The notes beneath the pieces were generated by a model. It was not told the origin of the DNA. It was given only the letters and a program-made list of their open reading frames with translations, and searched no databases. The translations under genes and the position numbers were made by a program. 64,000 nt of DNA from contig CAJNYD010000033.1 in the NCBI GenBank assembly GCA_905331295.1, forward strand, positions 1-64,000, in the 5' to 3' direction. Origin of the DNA: Rotaria socialis. Lineage: Eukaryota. Below, piece by piece: positions 13,776 to 48,352 of the stretch (positions are counted from its first letter, which is position 1; every line of letters starts with the position of its first letter).

Positions 13776-16182
13776 TTATTTGGCTTGAACTGGTGGTTTC
13801 CATTTTAAACTTGAACTGTTATGTGGAAAAAGAAACCACGGGGGAAAATAATGCTCTTTAATACAATTTTGAAATGGTACTGGGTAATTAAGGTCATGAA
13901 CAACATTTCCACCAGCCAGCCAAGCGGCCCACCAACTATAAGTACCGGCTGTAGCAATTGTATGTTCACATAAAGCTAATGCAGCTAGATCATCACCTGA
14001 GAAATACCTTGCTGGCGTTATGAAGACATCAGAGAAATTTCCAAGATTTATTTTCACATAATTTTTATCATCGCTTGCAACTAAAAATCGACAATTAATA
14101 TATTTTCTTCGATAATAATCCATTGCCCAAACAAGATAGTCTACACTTGTATCAATTCGAAAAAAGGTTAAAAAATCACTTCGACGAATATGAATTCCAA
14201 CCCAAGTGACAGGTGCTAAGGGTGGTGGAGGATTTATAAGAAGAGATTTTAAATATGGATGTGGTACATTGTTTTTTGTATAATTACCCAAATTCAATGG
14301 TATATTCCAAACAGCTGAAAATTAAAAAGTTTTATAAAAAGATTTGTTAGTATTCAATAGATAACTGCTGAAGATAATTGAATTGATTTATTGCTAACAT
14401 AGATTTGAGCAACCTCATACAATGAGCTTTAGCAATGTCTAGGTAATTCAAAGATAAGCAACGTTTCACGTCATGAATCCTGCTATTTACGTATGTAAAT
14501 TTTTCAGTTTTTTCAATCAAGTTCTATCTATGGTGCAGTAGTGTCGAACTTGAAAGCTGAATTCAACTGAAACTTCAACTTTCAACGAGGGATTTTCAGC
14601 CTTTCGTGACAACCACATCCACAGAAGTCAATTACAAGAATAAAAACTTTTAATAAATTATTTTAAATTTCACAGTTTCAAATCATTTTTGTTGTGTTTC
14701 TGAACATGAATTATGGTACACAATTTAAAAACTAATATAACAAAGTAGCATCTACGTAGCAATGAGCTAAGAACCCAAAGCTTTCTCAAAATATTCAAAA
14801 CTCATTTGGAGCTCCACAATCTAATTAGTTACAGCTTACAAACAACAATTAACCAGTTCAAAACTTTTCTCGTTTGTCTTAAAGAAAATATATCGCAATT
14901 ATTAGAATTTCAATCAACTATTCTATTCTTCGAAAACTAAAACATGAATCAGGATTAATATCCAGAGAATTTATTTTCAGTGTCATAATATCGATTATAT
15001 GAGAAGTGATTGTTCAATTAACTTTCTTCTTTTGGGTTTTTTTCTACGATAATTTTTGAAAAAGACATTTCAGTATAGTCGTAATAGTTAAAGGTAAGAA
15101 TGTGCGTCTCAAACTTGGTCTAGTTGCCATTAGAATACATTGACGGAAATATCGTTCTTTAGCTTCAAGTTTTTCTTTCAAACTTCTGCATTGCTATTCG
15201 AATGGCCAGCAAATTATTATAAATAAATGTGCTTCGGTAGTTTTGTAGCGAGCAAGTTTCTATGTACATTCGACAACAAGAAAGAACAGAAATAAAATAA
15301 ACACGAGGTACTCTTACATATATTTTTTTGTTTTCAAAATTATTTTGAAAACGTCCGAATTCAATAAGAAAATTGCTTTCATCTTTCTAGATTTTTAAAA
15401 TCGCCAACTATCGCTTTCACTTTTTATGTTCTTTCAATATTCTAAAATCCTTCATTTAATATTATAAAATCAAATAAATAACTCTAACCTTTTAGAAGCT
15501 GATCAACTAAGGGTACAACGCTAGCAATAGCTCCTGAATTGAATTGAAATAAAAATGCAATTTCTTCTTTATATTTTTCAAAATATCCATACGCTTGATA
15601 GAATCCAACCATTTCATATCGATTAAAAGTGGAATTTAGTGGAATTTTAAATAAATCACTGTATAAAGTACAAGCACTATATCGTCCATATATATCAGTT
15701 CGATTAACTACAACAGAATCATCTGTTGTTAGCTGAACTTTTGTTTGATTTATTGGAATTAGAAAAACTGATCGAAGATCAATTAAAATCCAGGGTGCTA
15801 CATAAAGTTTACATTGATGTAGACGGGCTAACCCATAAGCACTGGCAAATAAAAACATTCGATTTCCAAGAGCTCCATCAGCTGTACGAATTATAATTAA
15901 ACATGTTAGCGGTGCTTGAGCTTTATCATGAAGATTTTTACTATAATTATTATTACTAAGAAGTAGACCTCTAATTGAAGAATAATAAATTTTGGAGTTT
16001 GACGACCGTAAAATGGTAAATTGACTTCGATCAAACCAAAACTGATAAATAATAAAAAAGACAATGAGTCCGAATATGAATAAAACTAATTTTCTATGCG
16101 TAGTATGGGATTGGACATAGTGAATATAATCATCGCTAAGACGCTTTAAATGATCTAACTTTGAAAGTAATTCGTTATACAT
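13776..16182 (-). CDS. GT11-family alpha-1,2-fucosyltransferase, type II membrane protein (exons 16182-15489 and 14314-13776)
   Basis: N-terminal TM segment LVLFIFGLIVFFIIYQFW. Motifs GALGNRMF, GFYQAYGYF, GIHIRRSD, FLVASDD and DLAALALCEHTIATAGTYSWWAAWL. A phase-1 GT-AG intron at 14315-15488 joins the frames. Confidence 0.88.
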
Positions 16183-19100
16183 TGGGTGATGGAAATTTTA
16201 CTGTTCTTTTTTCTTTTATGAATCGCATTTTTGTTGAGTTCTCTTAGAAATAATCCAAACGCAAACTAACCTGAATGCAACCAATAAGAAATATACTTTT
16301 TATGGTCTTTTTTTATATTTTTTCCTTTTCTGCTATTTGAAGCATTTCTGCCATTAGAATGTAAAGCATCGAAGTGAAGCCTACCATAATGGAGTCCGTC
16401 ACTACGGGTGAACAATGAGCTAAATTCATATTCTACAAGATGCAACAATGCATGTAACTTATTTTATGTAGTTTCAACCAATAGCATCATTATCCGTTTT
16501 TTACTTTCATTCATCCAACAACTGTTGAAGATAAAATCAGTGTTGCTAACAGCAAGAATCGACAATGACAATGGAAACAAAATATCCATGATATGTATAT
16601 GATACTCTATTCTACAATTTACTCATAAAATAATAAAATGTCATGAAGAGATATTCTCCAGGCAAGTTTCATTGCTTTGCCTTGCAAATTACGAAGAAGA
16701 AGAATACGTTTCATATTTATATTCAAGTTGGAGCATTAGTTTTTATTTTTATTGACAAAGTAGCACACGAAAAAGATTCATAACTAGCATAACAATCTAC
16801 CAAGAACATGAAAAAAAATGTGTTTGATCTTTAGTTATAATTAGTTTTCTATTTATCTAGCGAACATTGTCTCGCCCACCTACTCTGGTTTTACACGGTG
16901 TTATGTTCCATTTTTAAGCTTTTATTTTATTTTATAATATTATATATCAGGCAGTGAGAACCTAACGAAACATATCAACAAGAACTAATCTGAATATATA
17001 TACTTATATATATATATTCGAGATTAAGGAAAAGAAAAACAAACAAATAACTATGGACCTATAACATTATATAATGAAGATGTCAGATCCTAACACACGG
17101 TTTATTTGAGAAAATATGAATCATTAATGTCAAAAGTAACAACATGAAAAAACTAGACGAAAACATCGATCTGTATGCGAAAGAAAACGCTGTATTTCAC
17201 TAACGAAGCTAATTGATGATAACATTGTAAGCAGCTGATATGATCCGTAATTCGTTGAAATTAATATTTTGTTTTTCTTTACAGTAGTTGTGTAAAAAGA
17301 TTATATCTTTAACAATTCTTAAGCTTATATGTTGATTGAATTTTTAAAATACTTCAGTTTTACCTTTATCATTTTAAAAGGCGTTTTAATTGAATAGATG
17401 TAATTATATATTGAAGTTACACCACTGACAGAGTTATTTGATTACGATAAAAAAAGATTCCTCATTTTCATCAACAGAAGAGTCGATAGAAATATAATTG
17501 GATGAATCAGTATATAGCTATGGCATTAGCATAGTTTTATTCTGAAATAGGATTACTAAAGTAATATTCTTCTCTGTGAAACTCACATACATTTTTCGAA
17601 GAAAATGGTGAGTGTAAGTTTACAAGCGAGATTTTTGCGGCTCCCCAGCTCCCCCCCCTTCCCATTACAAACATTAGCTTAAAATTGTACTGATTAGGAG
17701 CTTGACTAATTAGGTTGCTATTTCTTTCTTTTTTTAATTCCAGGCTACACGAAACTAGTAATGCTTGCTCATTTGCAGACCATACTAACTAATTTAGGTA
17801 CCATTATAGACCAAAGAAGCTAGTCGCTGCCACTGTTAAATATACGAGCTAGCAATTAATACTCCATTACAGACATAAGCAAATAGACAATGACCTAATT
17901 ATAGGTTTTGGAAATCAAGGCAGATCTTTCTGATGAACTGTCTTAAATTATTTTAGTAAGCCTAAGAATATATGTGAGTTCCATATTTTAACTCCAAAGG
18001 GGCTGCGCTAGCAAGCTTTTTTTCTTTGCTACTTTTACTGAACTTAAAGACTATCGCATGATTGAAAATCTTATTTACCATTTGATAATACCATCTTAAT
18101 TTGGTGTAGTTTATTCCACACTTTCAAAAATAATTCAAAATTTTGTTATTCTCAGACTAAAGTGAGCACACATGCAGGGTATCATTTTGTTCTTTGATTG
18201 TAAAACTACTATGTAACTTAATTTAAAACTTTTTTAGATTTCTATTAGAAACACTGCATAATATCACTGATCAATGACAGGGACACGATTTATGAGAAAC
18301 GAATCAAACATATTTTGTTTTTGAAGGAATTTTTCTTTATCAATTTAAGCATTATTTTAAGGAATCTATAGAACTTTGAAGACTTTAAACATAAGGATAT
18401 GTCTTTGCGAAACGAAGAATTTTTCGTTACTTGATACAACATCACAGCTTTTCATTGATTGAGTTCCTATACATGCTTCAGCAAAATGTTGGAAACCTAG
18501 ATTGAGAGTATCCAAGCATGCTGAATGCAATGTATAGATAGTAATGTATTTTTGAATTTTTTTATACACCACATTGTTAATCGCTGAAATCTTTGTATGA
18601 AATCATCTTTTTCGGTAGCTAGAGATTTTTCGACGGGCTTAAAAAATATTCTGCTTCCGATAGATTCGAATTGAGATAGGTTTGACTGGCTATTTAAAAT
18701 ATTTTTTTGATTACTTTTTTGTGGTGGCAGTTTCATATCGATGATGAACATTGTGCTTCAATGTTTCGCAGCATTTCTCATCTAATGAAGAAAAAAAATG
18801 AGAATAGCAGATAGAAATTTCCAGATTTATTTTCTTATTTCAGATTAATCACTCTTTTGATGGTAATAATGTAACAAAAACGACGAACTATAAGTACTCG
18901 TCTACGAAAAAACATTTACAAGTGTTAGGCTTTCGCACATTTGTGCAACCGACTATGACAAGCATAACATGGAAAATAAAATAGAGGATATCATTTTAGA
19001 AATTGCTCGAAAGTAATATTGACTGAATTTTCTCTAATGAATGGAATAACATATCAACTATAATCGGATTGCTAATTGTAACGGATTTGTAAACTTATCT

Positions 19101-29898: not shown

Positions 29899-32800
29899 AT
29901 GTCATCACGAAGAGGTCGAGATTATCCTGATGGTATATTTTCTTTTCTTTAAAAAGATATTTTCAATTGATCGGGATCTTTTCTTTTAGATGATGATCGA
30001 GATCGTCGATCATCTAAACGTCGTATGTATTCTTTTTTCTTTTGCTAGAGAAAACTTAATGGAATTGTTTATCTATTGTTTTGAATTTCATATTAGCTCG
30101 TTCAAGTCGTGTCGACGAAAGTTCATCTGAATCATATCAACGTCGATCATATTCATCATCTAGCGTAGAAGAAAAACCTTCGACTTCTTCAAATCAACCC
30201 ATTAGATTTACTGAATTCACCTCGACTTCTGTAGTACCAAAATCTTCAATAGACACAGAAATTGATGCAAAAAAGCGTTCACATTCGTTTGTTCGTCCAC
30301 TACTACGTTCAGCTGTACCAGATTCTCAAATAATAACACTGGCACGAAGACCAGCGTTACCTGGACGTGGTAAAATAGCGATAGAAAAGAAAATAATTTA
30401 TTTTTATTTAAATCTGATTAATTGTTGTAGCTGGTCAGCGATTTGAAATTTATACAAATCATTTAAAGATTGAATTTTCCAATGCGACTGAATCATTAAT
30501 ACTTTATCAATTCGATGTAGATGTTGAAATATTAATGCGTGATGGTTCATGGCGTTCATGTAAAAAAGATGAACGCTTTCAGGTTATGAAAACAATTATC
30601 GAACGAGAAGAATTTCCACTTGTTTGGTATGATCAAGGGAAAAGTTTATATTCAACTCAAAATTTAACCTTAACATTAAAAAAAGAATATGAATGTGAAA
30701 TAGTCCATAAAAAAACAAATCGAACAAATCGTTTTCGATTTTTACTTATTAATCTTGTCAAAACTTATGATTTAAAAATAATTTTCGATTTCATTCAAAA
30801 GAAAATGCCTAATCGTCCACATGATCCTGTAAGAATTCTAGAAATTTTATTTAAACAAACCCAAAGAGCTGATATGATTACAATAAAAAATCAATCATAT
30901 CCAAAAAATCAAAAATTAGATGATCTAGGTAAAATATTTTCATAAGAGAAACAGAGAAATTGTATCATCATGAATTTTCATTAAGGTGATGGTCGTGGTT
31001 TAGCTGCAGGATTTTATCAAGCAATCGTACTTGGTGAATGTGGTCCAACATTGAATATTAATAATAATTTTTGTTGCTTTTATCAAAATGATAATTTAGT
31101 TCAATTCATTTCCTGTTATTTAGGCCAAGATATTAGAAAAAATGGTTAGTTAAACATTGAAACATTATTTCTCTCAAGTTACTTTTCGATTAGTATTGTC
31201 TGAACGATATCAAATTTAGTCATTTCTTGTTTTTTCAATTTTACATTACGAGATACAGACTATTTTTTACCTTCGATTGTTCTTAGTCGATCAGCTGTGA
31301 TCGTTTGTGAGGAAAAAACTCTATCAGCTTAGTTTTCCAATTTTCATTTGTTTATTTACCGGTTATTACTAGAAATTTCAGCTACAAGTTTGACTGGAAA
31401 TAAATTTAATAGTCATATAAAACTATTCATTGGTCAAGAATATATTCATCTGTGTTAAAGTTTTAACAACTTTTCGCTCGTTATACCTCCTATTAATTGC
31501 GAAAGTTTCACCTGGAAGTTTAATCATTTAGATTATCAAGAGATTTGTATTCATAGCGTAAAAATGCAGTAAAATGCTTATAAATAAATAAACGAATAAA
31601 AAAATATGTGTAGATTAGATAGTAAGAGCAAAACAAGTCTTGCTACTTTTATTATTATTATTATTATTATTATTGTGATTTACCAGAAGAAGTTAAATGA
31701 TAAATATTTTCAAGTAAGAAGAGTTTGAACAAACAGAAATCTCTTTGCGTCAGTTTTAATCTGCAACATTTTTTCAACTAAATTATTGTTTGAAAATACT
31801 TTGTTTTTGTAAACATTATCGCATGATGTGACACTCTAGTGATGAATTAAATTCAGTAAAACAGAGTTTTTGTATCTACGGGGGAAAAACATTTGTTTCT
31901 AGTCCTCTATCCTTTCAAACTAAAAACTCCGACAGGTCTTCAACATTTTACATGTTTGGCAAAGAAGATATATTGTATTTTTTAACGCCACTTACTTAAC
32001 CTATTCTAATGACTGAATGAAAATTATTTATAAGTAAACTTTTCCATCATAACATTTTACCCAAATAACTGACATATCAATAAATAAAAAATACTCACTT
32101 TTGGTAATTTGTTTTTTCTATTGAATAGACATTTAATTCATTAATATTATAAATACTCTCCCCTAAATTTGAATATATTCCTTAAGTATATCGACGTCTT
32201 TATAGACGAAATAAAAATTGATTACTTTAATGTGTATTTGAAGGTATCTCACCAAACGATCAATCGTTCTTAGTACGTAAAATCTTAAAAACTATTTGGT
32301 TTGTAACAACACATACCAATCAAGTTCGAAAATATCGTTTAAAATCATTTGGTCGTTCATCAAATGAGCATAGATTTTCTCAAGATCATGGTGAAAATCA
32401 AGGCGAGCAAATAAATGTTACTGATTACTTTCGAGAAAAGTGGAAAATTCGTTTACGTTATCCACAATTACCTGTTGTTGAGCTGTTTAATCCAGTGGAT
32501 AAAAATAAATCACATTTTTTACCAATGGAATTAGTTACTGTCGATGAATGGCAGCGAAGTTTAAAACCATTAACAACTGAACAACGAGCAAAAGTAACCA
32601 AAAAAACTGTTGTTAAACCGGGCGAACGTTTTGGAATGATTCGACGCGTTATTGACGAATGTCGGTTTGATCAAGATTCTTATTTACAAAAATTTGGTAT
32701 CAAAGTTCATTCTAACGATATGTTGAAGATACCGGCAAGAATTTTAACGCCACCTGACATAAAATATAAATCAACAAAAGACGATCAACGCGATATTATT

Positions 32801-35009
32801 GAAAAAGTACAAATTGGTAAATGGTATTTAAATAATCAATTTAATAAAACACGTGAAATACGTATCTGGGCTCTTGTGCTTGTCAGTCAAAAAGAACCTG
32901 ACGCACGACAAGTCGGGTTAGCTAGAGATTTTGCAAGTAAAATTCCAAAGGTTAGAAGATTTATTGTTTTTCAAATGATATAATCAATAATCTCATTTTT
33001 TTTCTTCTCGTCGAAAAGGCAATGTCGAGATATGGTGTTCGATTTAATTCAGCAGCTATTGAAAAATCCGATGCTGCTGTACCCGACACTATTTTAGCTC
33101 GGATGAATGAGCTTAAAATGTTAGGATGTGAAGTTATCATTTATATTCTCAATCAAGTTGGTGAGGATATATATCATGTGATTAAATATTTTGGAAATGT
33201 TAAACTTGGTAAGAACCGATTTCACTCTTTTGACATTTGAATGAACTGTTTCCGATTTTTTTCCAAGAAAATGAAGTGTGAAGGATAGTTAACGAAAATT
33301 TACTGAACATAATACAACTATTTAGTATGCTCTTACTTTTGAGGATTGTTTGTTAGATTGAAGAGCAGATCTTTTCTTATAATGCATCTGATGAAATGAG
33401 CCATTCGCAAGACAAACATATTTTTGTTTTAAATTGAGATCATTCTAAATAATCTATATTTTATTGAAACTTTAGTCATCTCAACTTCAAACGATTGTTG
33501 AGCAATGCAAAAATCTAAATAAAAGAAAATCTAGAAAACTTTGCCGTTTTGAAGAAGAAATTATGTTATTCGAGTTAATCATTTTTATTTTTCTGTGTCA
33601 GACTATTAATAAAAAGCTTTTCTGGTATCTAAATCACTTCATTGTTGTAGGTATGGTTACTCAATGTACACGTTTCGACAAACTTTTTGCCAATAGTGAA
33701 CCACGTAAAATGGATATGTATATTCAAGTGAGTTTTTTATATTTAAAAACAAAAATTTTCTATTTAACAACACAATCTGAGCAAATAGAATTTGGTACAA
33801 AAATTTAATGCAAAATTGGGCGGTATAAACCAACTGGTTTCGTTGATGCGTGCATTAACCTCTTCATCGCCTCGTACAGATATTTTTATGTTTTTTGGTA
33901 TCGATTGCACTCGTACAACATGTTCACGTGAACAGCCATCAATAGCTGCTATTATTGGATCAAAAGATTCAACAAGTTTGTTTGAGTTTTATTCATCTAC
34001 AAAAAGACAAATTCTTTTTAGGTACACAATATGCTGGCCGTGTTGTTCAGCAATATTGCCCAAAAGGAAAAATATCAGTAGAGATAATAAAGGATCTTCA
34101 TATTTATGTTCGAGAATTATTACATGAATTTTCTCATCATAATACTCATCTACCAAATAAACTTGTCTTTTATCGTGCCGGTGTTGATGATGGATCTTTT
34201 CAAAAAGTACTTGATAATGAAGTGCGAGCAATTCAACGAGCATGTAAAGGTAGTAAAGATCATCATATTAACTCATTCAATAAAAGTAATTATCTGTTTT
34301 AAATAAGAACTTTATGGTTACAATGAATTACCAAAAATTTGTTTTACAATTGTTAAAAAACATCATAATACTCGGTTTTTTACTTGGGATAAACAATCAA
34401 ATCAAACACATAATATTCAACCAGGTAAAAGTTCTTTTTTTATTGGCTAGTTCTTTTTTATTAGTTTTCTGTTTTTTGTTTTAATTTTAGGCACAGTTAT
34501 TGACACAGATATTATTTCACCGAATGGATTTGATTTTTATCTTAATTCTCATGCAGCAATTCAGGGCACATCCAGACCAATGCTTTATCATGTTTTATAT
34601 GATGATATTGGTTTTACACCAGATGAAATTCAACAGTTAACGTGAGAATTTTATTGTAAATATTAAAAATAGAATATAAAAGTTATTATTAGATATTATT
34701 TATGCCATACGGATGTTCGATGTACGAAATCTGTGTCTGTTCCAGCACCAGTTCATTATGCGACACTTTGCGTATCTCGTGGCCTAAACCTTGATTATGA
34801 AGGACAAATGTCTAATGAACCGCGTAGTTTTTCTATGTAAGTTTTCGAAGTATTTATTCCAATGAAATAATACAATAAAAAGCTTTCATTTTAGTTCCGA
34901 TGTGGGTGAAGAATTATTAGATGAAAATGTTGTTGTTACATTAGATGATGTTCAAACAATAAAAATTAATTTTAATCCATCAATTGAGAATACAATGTGG
35001 TTTGCATAA
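29899..35009 (+). CDS. Argonaute-family protein (divergent AGO; N, L1, PAZ, MID and PIWI domains), multi-exon
   Basis: [33 protein letters not shown] ([28 protein letters not shown]), MID ([20 protein letters not shown]) and PIWI ([55 protein letters not shown]). Ends in MWFA-TAA. Confidence 0.92.
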
Positions 35010-40835: not shown

Positions 40836-41211
40836 TTACAGACTAGTGGATAAGGGTCATACTAAATGTGAAATATTTCTTCAATGATTTTTATCGAATT
40901 GAGTTCATTTAATTATAAATGAATTAATTGTTATTTCAGTCAAAACTCTACTGGTGCTTCTTTTTTTCCTTTTGCCATCATTAACAACCTCATTCAAGCG
41001 AACTATGCTGATACCTAAATGTTCCAATATGAAAATAGACAATCGAGGAAAGAGTTTTCTTTTCAAACTATGACATTTAGATCTATTCGAATTGATAGAT
41101 TACAAAAGAAAAACATTTCGTATTCAATAATCGACGTCGGATAAATGTTTTTTTAATTGATATTTCATAAAATTGTATTTTACATGTAATATTGCTTTTG
41201 AAGATAAAAGC

Positions 41212-44200
41212 ATGTTTTTAAATAAAAGCTTGCATCCATTATACCGATATCAATATTTACTGATTCGCTATCGGAAAACAAACAAAAACTATTCGATTAC
41301 ATCATCCTCATCGAATAATTTAAATTCAACCATGAAGTCACTTGTTGATTCAAAACAATATGAAAAAGCTTTGAAACTTTTCAATGAACAATCTCAAATT
41401 TCAACAGATTTTACAATAAACATGGCAATAAAGGCTTGTACAAAGCTGCATGATTATCAACAAGGAGTCAACATTAAAGAAAAGCTTTCACCAAAAACAC
41501 TCAACAATCCGTATATTCAAACATCATTAATACATTTTTATAGTGAGTCACTGTTTTACCAATAGAAGGCATCATTACATTAAAATATTAACGAATGGAT
41601 GTTCTATATATACATTTTCACAGAATATTTTTGAGTAAATGATACAGAACTCCAGTTTTTTTTAAATTTGTTGCTCAAATACGAGTTCTATAATTATTTC
41701 TCATGAAGTCTTTTTTTATTCATTTTTGTAAACAAACATTTTAGAAAATATACCAAACAATCCACCAATTATTACGAGAGAGTTAGAAAAAGTAGTCGTT
41801 TTCACTTTGAATTATTCGTATGTCATTTGATCATTTAAATTGACGTTTGAAAAAGCACGAAGAGATTTTTCTTTATGATTTTATTTGATATATTTTCAGT
41901 GTTTTTTTTTATATTCTTATCTAAAATCTATAGAAATAGAAGAATTCAACAATCGAACATTAGAAATTAAGAAAATCAAATAATCTCGATCTTCAAATAA
42001 GTAAAAGTGTTGAGATAGAGTCTGAAAAAGATGAGACGTCAAATTTCGTCTTTTAGTCAATGAGAAAAATGTTTAATGATAGTGATGATCGAAAATCATC
42101 ATTCGAATTAACCATAAAAATTGGATTCTTTTTTATTTGTTTTCGATTTTAATACGTAATATCAACAAACCATCGTGTTTTCCTTAATTAACACACAATA
42201 ACCAATATAAAACATTCTATTATATTCAACTAGTGTGTTTATTAATTACTTGATTCTATTTTTCTTATTAGTGCAATGTCATAAAGTTGATCATGGCTAT
42301 CATCTATTCTCTAAAATTGTTAACAAATCAAATCCAATGTATGCATCAATGTTTAAAGGTTACCAAGTTATTTTCTAATGTACTCACTACGAAAGATTTG
42401 TTAATTAATAGGTCTAATTACTAATAATATGTCTGAAAAAGTGTTGGACCTATTTGATGAGATGATAATTGAACCTGATAGTGTAACTCTCACAGTTTTA
42501 TTTAATGCATGTGCTCAAATTGCCAACAATCGAGCGATGAAGATTGGGAAAAATCTTCTTCATAAAATGCCTACTAATTATCAAAACAACAATGTTCTAC
42601 TAAATTCAGCAATAGACATGTTAATGAAATTTCGTGATATTGAGAATGCTGAACATGTTTTTCAATCAATGAAGAAGAAAGATATTATTAGTTATAATGT
42701 GATGATAAAAGGTAAGATATAGGGTGTCCGGAAAATCATAAACCACGAGAAAAACATTTTGAATATCTGTCGTATTTCGATTGAATGAGCTGATATTTTT
42801 ATACAAAACAATGGATTTATTCCTTAGGTCAAGAATAATAAACATCAAACTATTTTAATTAATTCTGTTGACTAGTGTCTTTAGCTTTCGTACAGATATT
42901 ACAGATAGATGTCTTGTTAGTCAATATCCGCTCAAAATTTTATCCATAAAGCCGTAAGACTTTGTTGGCAAAACTACCATATTGATTTTTTTGTAATTTC
43001 TGAAAAGTGAGTTTTCTATTGTATTCAAGAGGGAATGCCACCAATTGTTCAATCGCTTTTGCTTTAAAGTTATTTGCATTATATAGTTTCAAAACTCTGA
43101 AAACAAATTTGAGCAACTAGCTTATTGTTACGAAAATAATCCATTTGTAAGATATGAGTGCCGTGGTCCCTTCTCAGAAAAATTGATTTTCGAATTTTGA
43201 CTTGAAACTTTACACAGACACACGTCCCAATTAGAATAATTCTCTGTAAAAGTTTTAGGCCTTTTGATTTGTTTGTTTCATCAAATCTGCTGCTGTATTT
43301 GAACGAATGAAAATACACATTTTCATGATAGTTGTTTCTGACAATAGGAACAATAGAAAGATCTGAAACGCTCACAGAAAGTTTTCCTTATTGAGGCGCG
43401 CATCTATATAACGTTTTAAGTCAAAATTCGAAAACCAATTTGTTCCAATTTTTCTGAGGAGAACCACGATAATCACTAAAAGCCGTACCTCACAAATCAA
43501 TTATCTTCGTAACAATAAGCTATAACTACCCAACCTTTTTTTCGAGTATTCATAACTCTTTTGATGATCTTTCTTCATCAGTGGTATCCATGGTAAAAAT
43601 ATCAAGACATTTGATCGAAACAGGACGGAGATTTTCAAATTTTCGTTTGGCTAATGACTTTTTGAACACTATATATATTTTAATATCATTTTAAATATTG
43701 TGAAATTTAACTTAGGATATGCTACAAATGAAATGTCAGAAAAAGCATTAAATTTATTCGAACAGATACATTTAAACTTAGATAATGTGACCTATATTAT
43801 TATTTTTAATCTATGTGCTGAACTTGCAAATGATCGAGCGAAAAACATAGGAAAAAAACTTCTCGTTGAAATGCCTAATAACTATAGAAATGATAATGTT
43901 ATTCTAAATTCAGCAGTGCACATGCTAACGAAATTTGGTGATATGGAAGGTGCTGAAAATATTTTTCGATCAATCAAGAAAAAAACAATTATTAATTACG
44001 GCAGTATGATGAAAGGTAATATATAATGAATATCATTTTAAATATTATGAAATTTAACTTAGGATATGTTGCAAATGAAATGTCTGAAAAAGCATTAGAT
44101 CTATTCGAACAAATACATATAAATTTAGATCATGTAACTTATACTATTGTTTTTAATGCATGTGCTCAACTTGTCAATGAACAAGCAAAACAAATTGGAA

Positions 44201-47200
44201 AAAAGCTTCTTGACGAAATGCCGAATAATTACCGAGACGAAAATATTGTATTGGCATCGGCAATACATATGTTAATGAAATTCGGTGATGTTAAAGGTGC
44301 TGAAGATATTTTTCAATCAATTAAAAAGAAACATATTGTTGCTTATGGTGCTCTTTTAAATGGCTATAATTCAAATGATGATCCATCAAAATGTTTTAAG
44401 ATTCTGACAGAAATGCAAGATCTTGATATTATTCCCAATGAGATTATATGGAATATATTAATCGGTGCATGTTCACAAATCGGTATGCTTTTGAAAGGTC
44501 AATATATTGTTGATCAAATTCCTTTGCATATGCAAACTAAAAAACAAATACAAAACTCTTTAATTGATATGTGGGTAAATAATAATAATCAAAAAATATT
44601 GAGCATTTTTGATTTTGTTCATTCATTTTTTGTTTTGTTCTTTTGTAGGGTAAATGTGGTTCAGTTAAAAATGCCGAAGATGTATATAAATCAGTTTCTG
44701 ATCGTGATGCAATCACTTACAATGCAATGAGTAAGGAAATTTAATTTTATTGGAATATTCTTTTGATTATGGGACTTTATTTTTTTCAAGTTAATACATT
44801 TGGCCGTAATGGAATGGGTTTCGAAGCTATTAAACTATACAGAGAGATGCCGAATAATCTACGTGATGAAATTTCACATATTTGCATTTTAAACGCATGT
44901 TCTCATTCGGGTCTTCTTGATCAGGCTCAGATAATCTTCAACGAAATTCCAATCAAAACAGAAAGAATCATCACTATCATGGTCTATTGTTTTCTATAAT
45001 TAATTACATTTCATATTACTAATTAGTTTAGTATTTTAGATTGATTGTTTAAGTCGTTTGTTTGTATTTGATGAAGCACAAAAGTTAATAGATGATTATG
45101 AAAAAACGAACGCGCCATATTTTGTTATGTATAGTAAGTATTTTTCATACTATTAGTAAGATGAAAAAGAATGTAATGTTCAATGAAGACATGAATTGTT
45201 TCATTGGTTCTGAGCGATTTTCGTTTAAGAAACATAGAGATTTTTAAGTCTTTAGTCATACATGTTTCCTAAAAATATATTTGAGATACAAAAATACTGT
45301 AATTACAGCCAGTCCAAAAAGTATCCGCGCATCCCTATGTTTTTTTCGTATTTCTTAGTTTGTAAAGCAGAAATCAAACTTTTATATTTTTGCCAAGTAG
45401 ATAGTTCTTACTTCGAACGAGGTTCTCTATAAAAACAAATCATCAATTTTGACAATCATTTTAAATTTGGGAATGTCTCCTGAAAATGTTCGGTTTTTGA
45501 ATATGCTAGGCGATCGCTTTGGTAACATCAGAATTGGGAAAGCGAAAATTAATCGAGAATTTTATGGAAAAAAAATAAAATGTTCAACTGAATAAATGAA
45601 CTAAAGCATTAATAAAAGAAAAAGGAAGACATCATTGCAGAAATACAGATCACTACAACGAAGCGTATGTTGAGAGTGTGTGGATGCGAGTGGCGTCGGT
45701 TTCAAGAAGATTCACCCTGATAGCTATGCTCACTGTTTAATTTATCGGTTGTCCGTCTTGGGATTATTTTTTTTTCTGGGAAAATATGACGTGTAGTTTA
45801 ATCATCATATGGAACTAGGCGAAAAAGTAAGAAGTAATAGAGGCAGCTTATATCCAAATTTGTTTTTCATTGCATGGTGCTGACTATTGTGTTTTTTTTT
45901 CTTTTTTACTATGAATTAGTCGACTATTTTTCGTATCGACCAATTCTCGTCGATCCGTTTCCAGCATTGATAGTTATAGACCTCGTATATATTTTTCATG
46001 CCGAATATGTTCAGTTTTGAAAGCTCTTTTCGAATCTATTTTCAGATTTCCACTAACACAAGACAACTCTGTAATTGAGTTGGAATTGTCAAGAGTTGGT
46101 TGAAAAAAACTTGAAAATTTGAATTTTTTGCCAATTCCGAAACCTTTCTTTAATACTCCCATAAATTCCTACCACAGGTACGGATAGCACGAAACAAATT
46201 GGTCTTGACTGATATAAAGCATCCATAGGTAATTGTATTCTTCATCAGGGGAAATATCAACTTTCATACTATACTTCAGGAATTGGTGCACTCTATGTCA
46301 TAGTGTTCCACAGATTCAGATTTTTCTATCGTTATCTATCTTACTGTTACCCGTGCCAGACCCGCCGGTTGCAATATTCTCTCTCACGTTCGATACATTT
46401 CATGATGATAATGTACTTGAATAGTATCAAAAATTAGTTTCGCAGACTCATCCCTTTATGAGCAATCTAGATATATAAGTTTTATAATCTACAAGAGATG
46501 AAAAATATTTATTTTAAAATTCAAAAAAATTTGCACGCATTTTAGTATGAAAGATGAAGTTTTAGTGAAAATGAACCATTGAAGACGATTAAAAAAATCT
46601 AATTATGTATAAAAGAAATGAACAAAAATTTGCTTCAATTTAGTATGACTTTCATTTTCTATGAATGCATTGCTCATTTTTCTTATTTCAGTGGCTTTAT
46701 TATCGGGTGCACGTAATAATCGCAATATGACATTATCTGAAAAGATATATAATCGAATGAAAACTTTATTTCCTGATCAGAAACAAGGTCTTCTATCTGG
46801 TTCAATTCTTCTCTCAAATGTTTACTCGTCTTTGGGTAAATACGAGCAAGCAAAAAATCTTCGATATCATGAAAAAAAAGAATTAGGAGTGAAAGTAAAA
46901 ATTGGTTTATCATGGACAGAAGTGTATGGCGAGCTAGTGGTAAAGTATTTCTGTTAAACGCTAAAATGAGAAGATAATTTGTCGACCTTTTAGAGGTTTA
47001 AAGCTCATGATCATTCTCATCCGCGATCATCAGAAATCTATGCTGAATTTGATCGTTTATCATCTATCTTGATTAAATATAATTATAAATTTGATTCCAC
47101 TTGGATAACTCGTCAAATGAATGAAGAAGAAACAATAGAATCTGTTTTATGTGGTCATAGTGAAAAATTAGCCATTGGTTTTAATTTAATCCAAAAGCCT

Positions 47201-47432
47201 ATTCCAGAATTTATTCAAATTACTAAAAATCTTCGTGTTTGTGGTGATTGTCGTAAGTTAATATTGTTTTTTGTTTGTTATAATTTCAATTGTTCTTAAT
47301 AATTATTTTATTTCAGATGAATTTACAAAACTTATAGCGAAATTTTATCAACGTAATATTATTGTTCGTGATGCAAATCGTATCCATCATTTTTATCCAA
47401 ATGGGCAATGTTCTTGTCAAGATCATTTCTAG
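41212..47432 (+). CDS. PLS-class pentatricopeptide repeat protein with E1/E2 and DYW-type cytidine deaminase domain (11 exons, ~839 aa)
   Basis: Exons 41212-41542, 42272-42358, 42412-42711, 43716-44015, 44063-44574, 44649-44730, 44791-44981, 45040-45133, 46692-46939, 46994-47252 and 47317-47432 splice to 2520 nt without internal stops. The protein has P-L-S triplets, [54 protein letters not shown] and RDANRIHHF...CSCQDHF. Confidence 0.93.
42720..43673. mobile_element. Decayed Tc1/mariner-type MITE in intron 3 of the PPR-DYW gene
   Basis: TAGGGTGTCCGGAAAATCAT at the left and ATGACTTTTTGAACACTATA at the right, with further inverted similarity (~90 bp) and TA flanks. Removing it leaves a ~50-nt intron resembling intron 4. 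Confidence 0.65.
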
Positions 47433-48352
47433 TAGTTGAGCAATAAAACTGAGAATTTCGTCGCTGAAAATAATCATGATTATTATTTACACTAAATAAA
47501 ATTCTCTTGACCAATTTGTTGAATTTTTTTTTCTACCTTGACAATAGAGATCAGCGGAGTCGCACTATTTGATTCCTAAACCCGACCCGATTCCGAAAAA
47601 AATATTTTTTTCGATTCCGACTCCGGAAAACCCCTACTTTCTTTTGCAGCTTAGTGACATCTAATTCATATCAAATGTTTGATATTCTGAAAGGATATAT
47701 AAGTAAATGAATCAATAAGGAACGAACAGTGCATATTGTCATAGAATTCATTTCTTTACGTTTGTTTTCGAAAGTAAAAACTATTATGAATAAAAAGCAT
47801 TTAACTACCCAGTCAGACAAAAGTCTTCGAAAAACGCGTTATAACACGTTAAAACGCTGTTTTAATGAAATCTTAACGTGTTTTAACATGATACACGCAT
47901 AAATATTTAACTCTTTCATGTTGTAACGCTTTGAGTAGCTGCCAAATTCGAGTTCGAATATAAACGAAATTTTCCAAAATTTTCATCAGCTCCGATCCAT
48001 AGAAAGAAAAAGATTAACTTTCTGCTATACTTTCCTGTTAGAATAGGAAAATAGGAAAACCTTTTTTTCATGAGGGTGTGGGCGTGTGTCTTGTTATATA
48101 CCCTCATGCCCAGGCCCACCCATACCCCAAAATGTGAAATTATATAAAAACTCCTATTTTATTCAGCTTATTGGCGTCGAGATTACTTTCTATAAGATTA
48201 CTATGATGTGGCAGGGGCGTGAATATAATGGAGCCCTACACCCCCTAGTTTTGAACATTTTATCTTGTATTTGTCAACGAAAGCGAAAAAATTGCTCTTT
48301 TAGGGACGCTTTAGCGTCGGATATACACGAACAAAGATGTGGTACCGCTGTG

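Follow-up and report, generated by a model that had tools for sequence, protein, structure and literature searches.

A plant-type PPR-DYW gene and C-for-T codons in mitochondrial DNA suggest that bdelloid rotifers likely edit their mitochondrial messages

Because an intact gene for a plant-type deaminase in Rotaria socialis coincides with C-for-T "errors" in the mitochondrial DNA (mtDNA) of bdelloids, we propose that C-to-U editing likely repairs the mitochondrial messages of these animals. Judging from sequence data, it is quite probable that the gene, which lies in the 64-kb stretch of DNA analysed here (the window), encodes an intact mitochondrial PLS-PPR-DYW protein that acts on mitochondrial mRNA, where it changes a single specific cytidine or a few of them to uridine and restores conserved codons. 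A wider reading, which we regard as probable, is that bdelloids possess full plant-type mitochondrial C-to-U mRNA editing that was acquired in one horizontal transfer, is now required for functional cytochrome oxidase and cytochrome b, and acquires new specificities through the duplication of 300-nt exon modules, with sites being gained and lost between species and tens of sites occurring in one gene in some lineages. Mitochondrial C-to-U editing in an animal is a proposal, of which the papers found give no demonstration. The gene family has already been published; what is new are the candidate sites, their fit to the code, the presequence and the variation in exon modules.

Hand parsing of the protein revealed five P-L-S triplets, the first of which is degenerate, followed by P2-L2-S2, E1, E2 and E+/DYW (Table 1), as the initial annotation had described. 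The P-L-S-P2-L2-S2 array was also recovered in the alignments to 9kfx and 5iww and in a helical predicted model. The best match among the solved structures was the consensus PPR-DYW editor 9kfx (E 5e-106), which was also matched by the predicted model (pLDDT 88.7) in Foldseek (E 1.6e-30). The Pfam score of the DYW domain was 102.9 bits (cut-off 24); that of the E motif was 20.9 bits, which is under the cut-off of 27.3, although the E1-E2 alignment to 9kfx was nevertheless continuous. The HxE and CxxC ligands and the second zinc motif, which had been reported as retained, were confirmed in the spliced frame: H770 and E772 belong to the HSE that begins with CAT at 47156, C798 and C801 to the CGDC at 47240, and the second-zinc residues are HHF at 47385 and CSC at 47409. 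All four catalytic/zinc positions were intact in the 47 family representatives aligned (47/47), which were drawn from 94 hits of at least 380 aa and this gene's model, and a strict regular expression for HxE and CxxC matched 97 of the 120 best hits. The description as plant-type holds for the architecture but not for the PG box, at the place of which IGLSW stands; the protein ends in DHF instead of the terminal D-Y-W, and it therefore lacks the strict features of the land-plant DYW subgroup. The proline of the PG box is retained in 6 of 93 bdelloid domains. In the DYW:KP (U-to-C) subgroup, the HxE region and the C-terminal end are both altered; the protein does not have these features, as its HSEKLA is standard and its end is DHF. 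Outside plants, both the PG box and the terminal D-Y-W are variable, according to the available text of PMC13386178. In the hand parsing, the code residues at position 5 and the last position were canonical, with some atypical S-motif codes (AH, TY). By its array, E1-E2 region, deaminase motifs and code, the protein would be a PLS-class DYW editing factor.

Table 1. Features of the gene and their positions in the window
Feature	Position	Strand	Basis
PLS-PPR-E-DYW gene, 11 exons, 839 aa	41212..47432	+	identity to P0123; five spliced joints in X9
Exons 1-6	41212-41542, 42272-42358, 42412-42711, 43716-44015, 44063-44574, 44649-44730	+	
Exons 7-11	44791-44981, 45040-45133, 46692-46939, 46994-47252, 47317-47432	+	
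33-aa N-terminal extension, presequence-like	41212..41310	+	6 R/K, 0 D/E; composition
Remaining part of exon 1, plus exon 2: the degenerate first P-L-S triplet and beginning of next P motif	41311..42358	+	hand parsing
Exon 3, module A: 300 nt, phase 1, one 100-aa repeat unit	42412..42711	+	
Palindromic insertion in intron 3, ~950 bp	42720..43673 (approximate ends)	.	nested inverted repeats I1-I3; raised DNA-run depth
Exon 4, module B: 300 nt	43716..44015	+	
Module C: 347-bp intron-plus-exon unit	44016..44362	+	position of 1-2 extra units in other assemblies/runs
Final P-L-S triplet, P2-L2-S2, beginning of E1 (exons 5-8)	44363..45133	+	hand parsing, alignment
E1 and E2 motifs (exon 9)	46692..46897	+	hand parsing, alignment
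E+/DYW deaminase domain (exons 9-11)	46898..47432	+	motifs, Pfam, alignment

All ten introns are GT-AG and the joined exons form the single open frame that had been claimed at the outset. Of the six sets of junctions that stay open, we chose the one that retains CGDC and whose product is identical to P0123, a database protein named Rotaria socialis. Introns 1, 2, 4, 5 and 6 were precisely absent from the contigs of sequencing run X9, which is presumably RNA and is labelled as another organism, and none of these joints was found in the DNA runs X5 and X7; the gene thus appears to be expressed. Run X11, a guessed RNA run labelled as the same species, covered no exon and carries no weight as evidence. 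The introns were described as short and host-style; the latter stands, but introns 1, 3 and 8 measure 729, 1004 and 1558 nt. Of the ordinary animal genes said to surround the locus, a [2Fe-2S] gene that we take to be NDUFV2-like lies 3.4 kb downstream and the kinase, presumably AMPK, is more than 30 kb away, both names being assigned by likeness; an Argonaute gene is found ~7 kb upstream. Contamination was rejected on the basis of the host-like introns and GC3 (0.21, compared with 0.17-0.26 in the neighbours), the splicing and many Rotaria assembly records.

Named bdelloid proteins made up 110 of the 120 best hits, and the 93 named bdelloid DYW domains formed one clade (support 0.955) inside which this gene nests; the nearest outside domains identified no donor. 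The gene is therefore no lone case but a member of a large published family (PMC13386178). Chen, Qu and Zhang (2026), in the available part of that paper, assigned the bdelloid DYW-subgroup PPR genes to cluster IV, counted ~1,670 bdelloid DYW domains and reported ~60 DYW genes per genome in A. vaga, 58 of 60 of them expressed. Rotifer DYW-PPR proteins were noted as early as 2011 and had been counted in the thousands by 2026 (earlier mentions are in PMC3239186, PMC4202320 and PMC5295000). The accessible passages of these four papers name no rotifer editing site, target or compartment, and PMC3239186 merely suggests mitochondrial editing. The donor is disputed in the portions available: plants in PMC13386178, as opposed to a position sister to Naegleria in PMC4202320 (support 0.93).

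The mtDNA sample comprised 37 bdelloid mitochondrial contigs and the GenBank mitogenomes of Rotaria rotatoria, Philodina citrina and Adineta vaga; the GenBank bdelloid mitogenomes were PCR-sequenced according to the excerpt of PMC2784805. Two rotifer-like sequences (P0226, P0227) were excluded from the outgroups. In bdelloid mtDNA, otherwise invariant cox1 and cob residues are encoded with C instead of T. Radical changes at conserved columns of the 37 contigs were C-for-T at 21 of 888 opportunities, compared with 19/5,210 for the remaining classes together (p 2e-8) and 5/648 for other transitions (p 0.016), and C occupies just 662 of the 20,387 four-fold sites in the mtDNA contigs. In cox1, 12 radical C-for-T site-states occurred in 41 bdelloid sequences and none in 104 arthropods, with no reverse radical state in the same 41 sequences. 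H, T and L stand in the RefSeq cox1 of R. rotatoria at the positions of Y, I and F in arthropods (Y18, I245 and F377 in R. rotatoria numbering); Y and F are present in 104/104 arthropods and the I column is conserved in at least 95%. In cob, P. citrina and A. vaga have S inside the PEWY loop, the candidate codons being PEWYF(S) and CI(S)RS in P. citrina and PEWY(S) in A. vaga, and other C-for-T states include Pro replacing an invariant Phe or Leu (P0465, P0336). The S-to-P state at cob column 210 probably does not reflect editing, P being the residue in solved structures; it was left out of the 27 hand-picked sites and retained in the rule-based test. Candidate sites number 0-11 per contig and appear to be gained and lost across bdelloid lineages, the cox1 HFH site being C in 12 of 33 contigs dispersed over the tree. 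Contig L010, which covers cox1 only, shares 98.7% identity with L035; among 19 differences only two change an amino acid, and both are C-to-T, restoring Y and F. A candidate C was found in none of the six cox1-only contigs compared with 17 of the 31 longer ones; L010 and other short contigs are of putative RNA origin, with L010 having a foreign 5' end near the Y site, and the short contig L020 carries an L-to-S change under the rule's threshold. For cob, the same comparison gave no clear separation, a C-for-T state being present in 13/26 short compared with 36/61 long contigs.

Among 67 family proteins, 54 distinct code strings were found, mainly ND, TD, TN, NN, GD and GN; GD, AD, TD and NT are validated PPR codes in the part of PMC6468296 available. 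The bases upstream of the rule-picked C-for-T sites match the family code in the plant register alone (z 4.2, n=32; 3.1-4.5 after thinning), shifted registers giving at most 2.1 and control sites 0.4-0.7 (A/G) and 1.9-2.1 (T-for-C). G at -1 occurred in 0 of the 27 hand-picked sites compared with 4.4 expected. Together with the mtDNA pattern, this fit gives indirect support to the sequence-programmable C-to-U system of the initial annotation, in which the editing activity itself is what we infer. The code scan of mitochondrial genes that had been suggested showed a fit at the level of the family, but the predicted target core of this protein (G at -12, purines at -10 and -4, A at -9, U at -7 and -6) gave no significant site among ~1,340 columns from the mtDNA of other bdelloids. 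The best candidate, an F-to-S site in nad1, scored 6.9 of 9.8, ranked about fifth and fits worse once the extra module described below is included. This null result would also be expected if the family edits mitochondrial RNA while the present paralogue is orphaned, its site having returned to T, or is an RNA binder that serves stability, processing or translation, and the coming and going of sites and the excess of paralogues over found sites point the same way. We nevertheless consider this unlikely for the present gene, as its catalytic residues are all intact, its last 400 aa are nearly invariant (0-1 differences in 12 of 14 near-identical records, those reaching the C-terminus) and its modules are under purifying selection, with a dN/dS between modules of 0.20-0.41 rather than the neutral value near 1. 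For the family as a whole, ~60 DYW genes per A. vaga genome (as given in the available text of PMC13386178) set against so few candidate sites per contig speak against editing; because gene number exceeds candidate sites, many paralogues may be idle or otherwise employed. The rarity of the PG proline, the atypical S codes and the T-for-C control values also count against it.

The probable mitochondrial location proposed earlier agrees with the N-terminus, which is a putative mitochondrial presequence, import being predicted from composition. Residues 1-31 have a pLDDT below 50 in the predicted model, and in 37 pooled N-terminal extensions D+E amount to 2.1% compared with 10.8% in the protein body, with 8.3% R, a composition that resembles the presequence of the NDUFV2-like gene of the window. 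Translation from the second Met (M41) would instead yield a cytosolic enzyme that deaminates nuclear-encoded or foreign (viral, transposon) RNA, the mtDNA pattern having some other cause. Many records do start at this downstream Met (17 of the 65 proteins having the first repeats are without an extension), and defence genes typically show expansion and repeat shuffling; yet 44 of the 65 keep an extension of presequence composition, the RNA-like X9 contig begins upstream of the first ATG and the family code fits mitochondrial sites in register, which makes a cytosolic role very improbable. That there is no editing at all, the DYW family being catalytically silent and the C-for-T states being mild defects such as asexual lineages may build up, nuclear copies, or errors and chimeras of metagenome contigs (the 5' end of L010, a frameshift in L006), is hardly credible, since the changes are unidirectional, opposed to base composition and recurrent at identical codons, are shared by PCR-sequenced mitogenomes, put Pro at invariant Phe or Leu, are absent from arthropods and have code-matching bases upstream.

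If bdelloids edit their mitochondrial messages, the basic, acid-free N-terminus would direct import, each P or S repeat would recognise a single base 5' of the target, S2 being placed at -4, and E772 with the zinc site would deaminate the target C; in each species, the sites served by the dozens of paralogues would be few and would change over time. In the available sections of the sources, land-plant PLS-DYW editors (moss, PMC6397227; 9kfx, PMC13324415; OTP86, 7o4e; DYW1, 7w86) share the (P-L-S)n-P2-L2-S2-E1-E2-DYW order, HxE, CxxC, the second zinc motif, the position-5/last code, the S2 register at -4 and the avoidance of G at -1. Differences from them are the animal host, the ten introns, each symmetric 300-nt exon holding one repeat triplet, the lengths of the P (32 aa) and L (37 aa) motifs, a position 5 that is often G, xGLSW for the PG box and a DHF or DYF end. 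Heterolobosea (Naegleria gruberi, Acrasis kona) likewise have, outside plants, a DYW-PPR family that was acquired horizontally and expanded within the lineage, together with mitochondrial C-to-U editing, which was experimentally shown there according to the available text of PMC4202320, whereas we infer it for bdelloids. If true, an animal would use a hallmark of plant organelles by way of a foreign gene turned essential, and constructive neutral evolution would have a clean example; the COI and cytochrome b proteins published for bdelloids would contain wrong residues at edited sites, and engineers could draw on many guide-free C-to-U editors that are adapted to animals and vary naturally in their code.

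The symmetric 300-nt exons would allow the duplication of whole triplets and hence a changed specificity. An extra exon-plus-intron module, absent from the window, was present in both DNA runs aligned (2/2), and the 14 near-identical database proteins have three (4 proteins), four (8) or five (2) modules; the window sequence may be without one 100-aa module, either because the assembly collapsed or because alleles differ in repeat number. The palindromic insertion in intron 3 is likely a non-autonomous transposon and interrupts a copy of the 47-nt intron, as the matching intron tails reveal.

What is new here is evidence, tied to named sites in GenBank mitogenomes, that the bdelloid DYW-PPR family may edit animal mitochondrial mRNA, which we did not find in print; the named sites make the question of editing in rotifers directly testable. 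The candidate sites are C-for-T states, in which an otherwise conserved residue is encoded with C where T is expected. A short cox1 motif retrieved 37 mitochondrial contigs, which are bdelloid (87-91% identity to named proteins). Because several of them are near-identical, sites rather than cells were counted. Among the radical changes at 1,875 conserved columns, there were 21 distinct C-for-T sites per 888 opportunities, compared with 19 per 5,210 in all the other classes together and five per 648 for the other transitions, an excess that arises despite the C-poor coding strand of bdelloid mtDNA. In cob, 105 columns are shared with 33 outgroup proteins, and at these C-for-T could explain 14 site-states (62 cells), versus 17 others (39 cells). 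A state of this type occurred in 36 of the 88 full-length bdelloid proteins, including those of P. citrina, A. vaga and one Macrotrachela, and none was found at these columns in R. rotatoria. In cox1, 41 bdelloid sequences showed 12 radical C-for-T site-states and no reverse ones, while 104 arthropods, which are a distant control, had none in 28,496 cells. The RefSeq R. rotatoria cox1, the sequence of which was obtained from DNA (PMC2784805), has H18, T245 and L377, the last replacing F of the conserved HFH motif. Two records have Pro at an invariant Phe or Leu, each of which would require two edits. The highest number among the 37 contigs was found in L008 (11 candidate sites across five genes), which makes it a good lineage for testing editing. 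Separately, the divergent rotifer-like cytochrome b proteins P0227 (from a 13.4-kb contig), P0226 and P0219 had, at conserved columns, 33, 23 and 16 changes of the C-for-T type, along with 4-6 reverse and 46-51 other changes; these are possibly heavily edited lineages or possibly decayed copies.

The strongest tie of the family to mitochondrial C-to-U editing is the in-register fit of its codes to these candidate sites, since the codes, which are nuclear, and the sites, which are mitochondrial, come from independent data. Using the plant register, in which the PPR motifs run to -4 (PMC13324415), and weights that were our own interpretation of the published rules, the pooled family code matched the upstream bases of 27 hand-picked sites with z 4.0 and with z <1 at six shifted registers; G at -1 was found in none of these sites versus 4.4 expected. 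Since the site contexts had already been seen when these were picked by hand, the test was repeated on sites chosen by rule, against a binary purine/pyrimidine profile, giving z 4.2 for 32 sites and 3.8 for 36, 3.1-4.5 with clusters thinned and <=2.1 off register. The A-for-G and G-for-A control sites reached z 0.4-0.7, and T-for-C control sites z 1.9-2.1, which is only partly explicable. The protein of the window (839 aa) would probably be imported into the mitochondria, where its P and S repeats would read about 12-18 bases of RNA and the C four bases beyond S2 would be deaminated, restoring a conserved codon; for the bdelloid family as a whole, the same reading is very likely. Scored with the code of this protein alone, none of some 1,340 mitochondrial columns stood out significantly as its target. 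The four catalytic residues were intact in 47 of 47 family representatives, and 54 distinct code strings were found among 67 parsed proteins, the code pairs being mostly among those validated in PMC6468296. An N-terminal extension was present in 44 of the 65 proteins that contain the first repeats. In 37 pooled extensions, D+E amounted to 2.1% versus 10.8% in the protein body, with R at 8.3% and S at 15.8%, a composition resembling the presequence of the NDUFV2-like protein that is encoded in the window.

Some contigs may be RNA-derived edited products, although this is weakly indicated by the sequences. L010, which contains only cox1, and L035 differ in 19 codons, of which just two alter the amino acid, both by C-to-T in L010 and restoring Y and F; the first of these sites lies close to a chimeric 5' end in L010. 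Where the cox1 of R. rotatoria has H18, T245 and L377, L006, which is 95% identical to it, carries Y, I and F. A candidate C was found in none of six cox1-only contigs versus 17 of 31 longer ones; when the comparison was repeated on cob, 13 of 26 short and 36 of 61 long contigs had such a state, without a clear contrast. L020, one of the short contigs, had a single L-to-S change, which was below the threshold.

The 11 exons and all of the motifs named in the initial annotation were recovered at their positions in a single 839-aa frame, whose product is identical to the database protein P0123, named Rotaria socialis. Its PPR repeats and DYW domain were well above the Pfam cut-off, and the consensus PPR-DYW editor 9kfx was its nearest solved relative by sequence and fold. 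The copy at 41212..47432 is the sole one in the window, where no further PPR-DYW genes were found. Introns 1, 2, 4, 5 and 6 were exactly absent from contigs of X9, a run taken as RNA by guess and labelled as another organism, and none of their joints was found in two DNA runs; the X9 contigs extend 5' of the first ATG. GC3 was 0.21 versus 0.17-0.26 across six neighbouring exons. The spliced introns in the RNA-like X9 and the GC3 within the range of the neighbours rule out contamination, as had been argued previously, and establish a host gene. In one X9 contig, the match begins at AG (41202-41204), 8 nt 5' of the ATG, and is preceded by 15 unmatched letters; this AG fits a splice acceptor, and a trans-spliced leader is conceivable. 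Leader splicing occurs in bdelloids. X11, also RNA by guess and with the species label of the window, covered no exon of the gene. Across its last 400 aa, the protein recurs identically or near-identically in records under the names R. socialis and R. magnacalcarata (within P0002-P0137). Among the other features of the window, the glycosyltransferase gene is possibly another foreign gene.

Features of the window other than the PPR-DYW gene
Feature	Position	Strand	Remark
Argonaute gene (PAZ, linker 2 and Piwi domains)	30060-34300	+	~7 kb upstream of the PPR-DYW gene
Glycosyltransferase family 11 gene	13779-14321 and 15487-16197	-	domain match on the first stretch
High-copy repeat	47545-47900		just 3' of the PPR-DYW stop codon; 5-10x the depth of the gene in DNA runs

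Exon 3, exon 4 and the beginning of exon 5 each form a 300-nt phase-1 module that encodes one 100-aa repeat unit. Intron 3 duplicates the 47-nt intron 4 and carries an insertion of ~950 bp. The modules diverged under purifying selection, as the dN/dS proposed as a check in the initial annotation was 0.20-0.41 between them. Three modules were found in four, four in eight and five in two of 14 near-identical database proteins, and both DNA runs examined contain an additional module (code pair AH -> TD); because of this variation and the extra module, the repeat number of the window reflects either a genuine shorter allele or a collapse of the assembly.

The bdelloid DYW-PPR family has already been published, and the gene adds one member to it; 925 of 983 candidates matched in the homology search, and named bdelloid proteins made up 110 of the best 120. 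PMC13386178 counted 1,666 DYW domains in bdelloids, reported that 58 of the 60 DYW genes of A. vaga are expressed and inferred a transfer from plants; its abstract, Discussion and other available passages name no rotifer editing target. Mitochondrial editing in rotifers was suggested in PMC3239186, the rotifer DYW domains were grouped with Naegleria in PMC4202320, and rotifer DYW-PPR is mentioned in PMC5295000. No report demonstrating rotifer editing was found in a search that lay mostly outside subscription journals, and in the two bdelloid mitogenome papers, RNA editing was not discussed in the searched passages of PMC3426538 and was not mentioned in the searched text of PMC2784805. In the proposed DYW phylogeny (166 domains, FastTree, midpoint root), the 93 named bdelloid domains formed one clade (support 0.955), and a single acquisition would fit this monophyly. 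Unlike plant DYW with its PG box, only six of the 93 domains retain the PG proline, and bdelloid domains terminate in DHF or DYF; both features would count against a plain plant identity. The Adineta vaga protein P0001 contains two PPR-DYW units in tandem and the Adineta ricciae record P0091 contains an OTU domain, each possibly a fused gene model.
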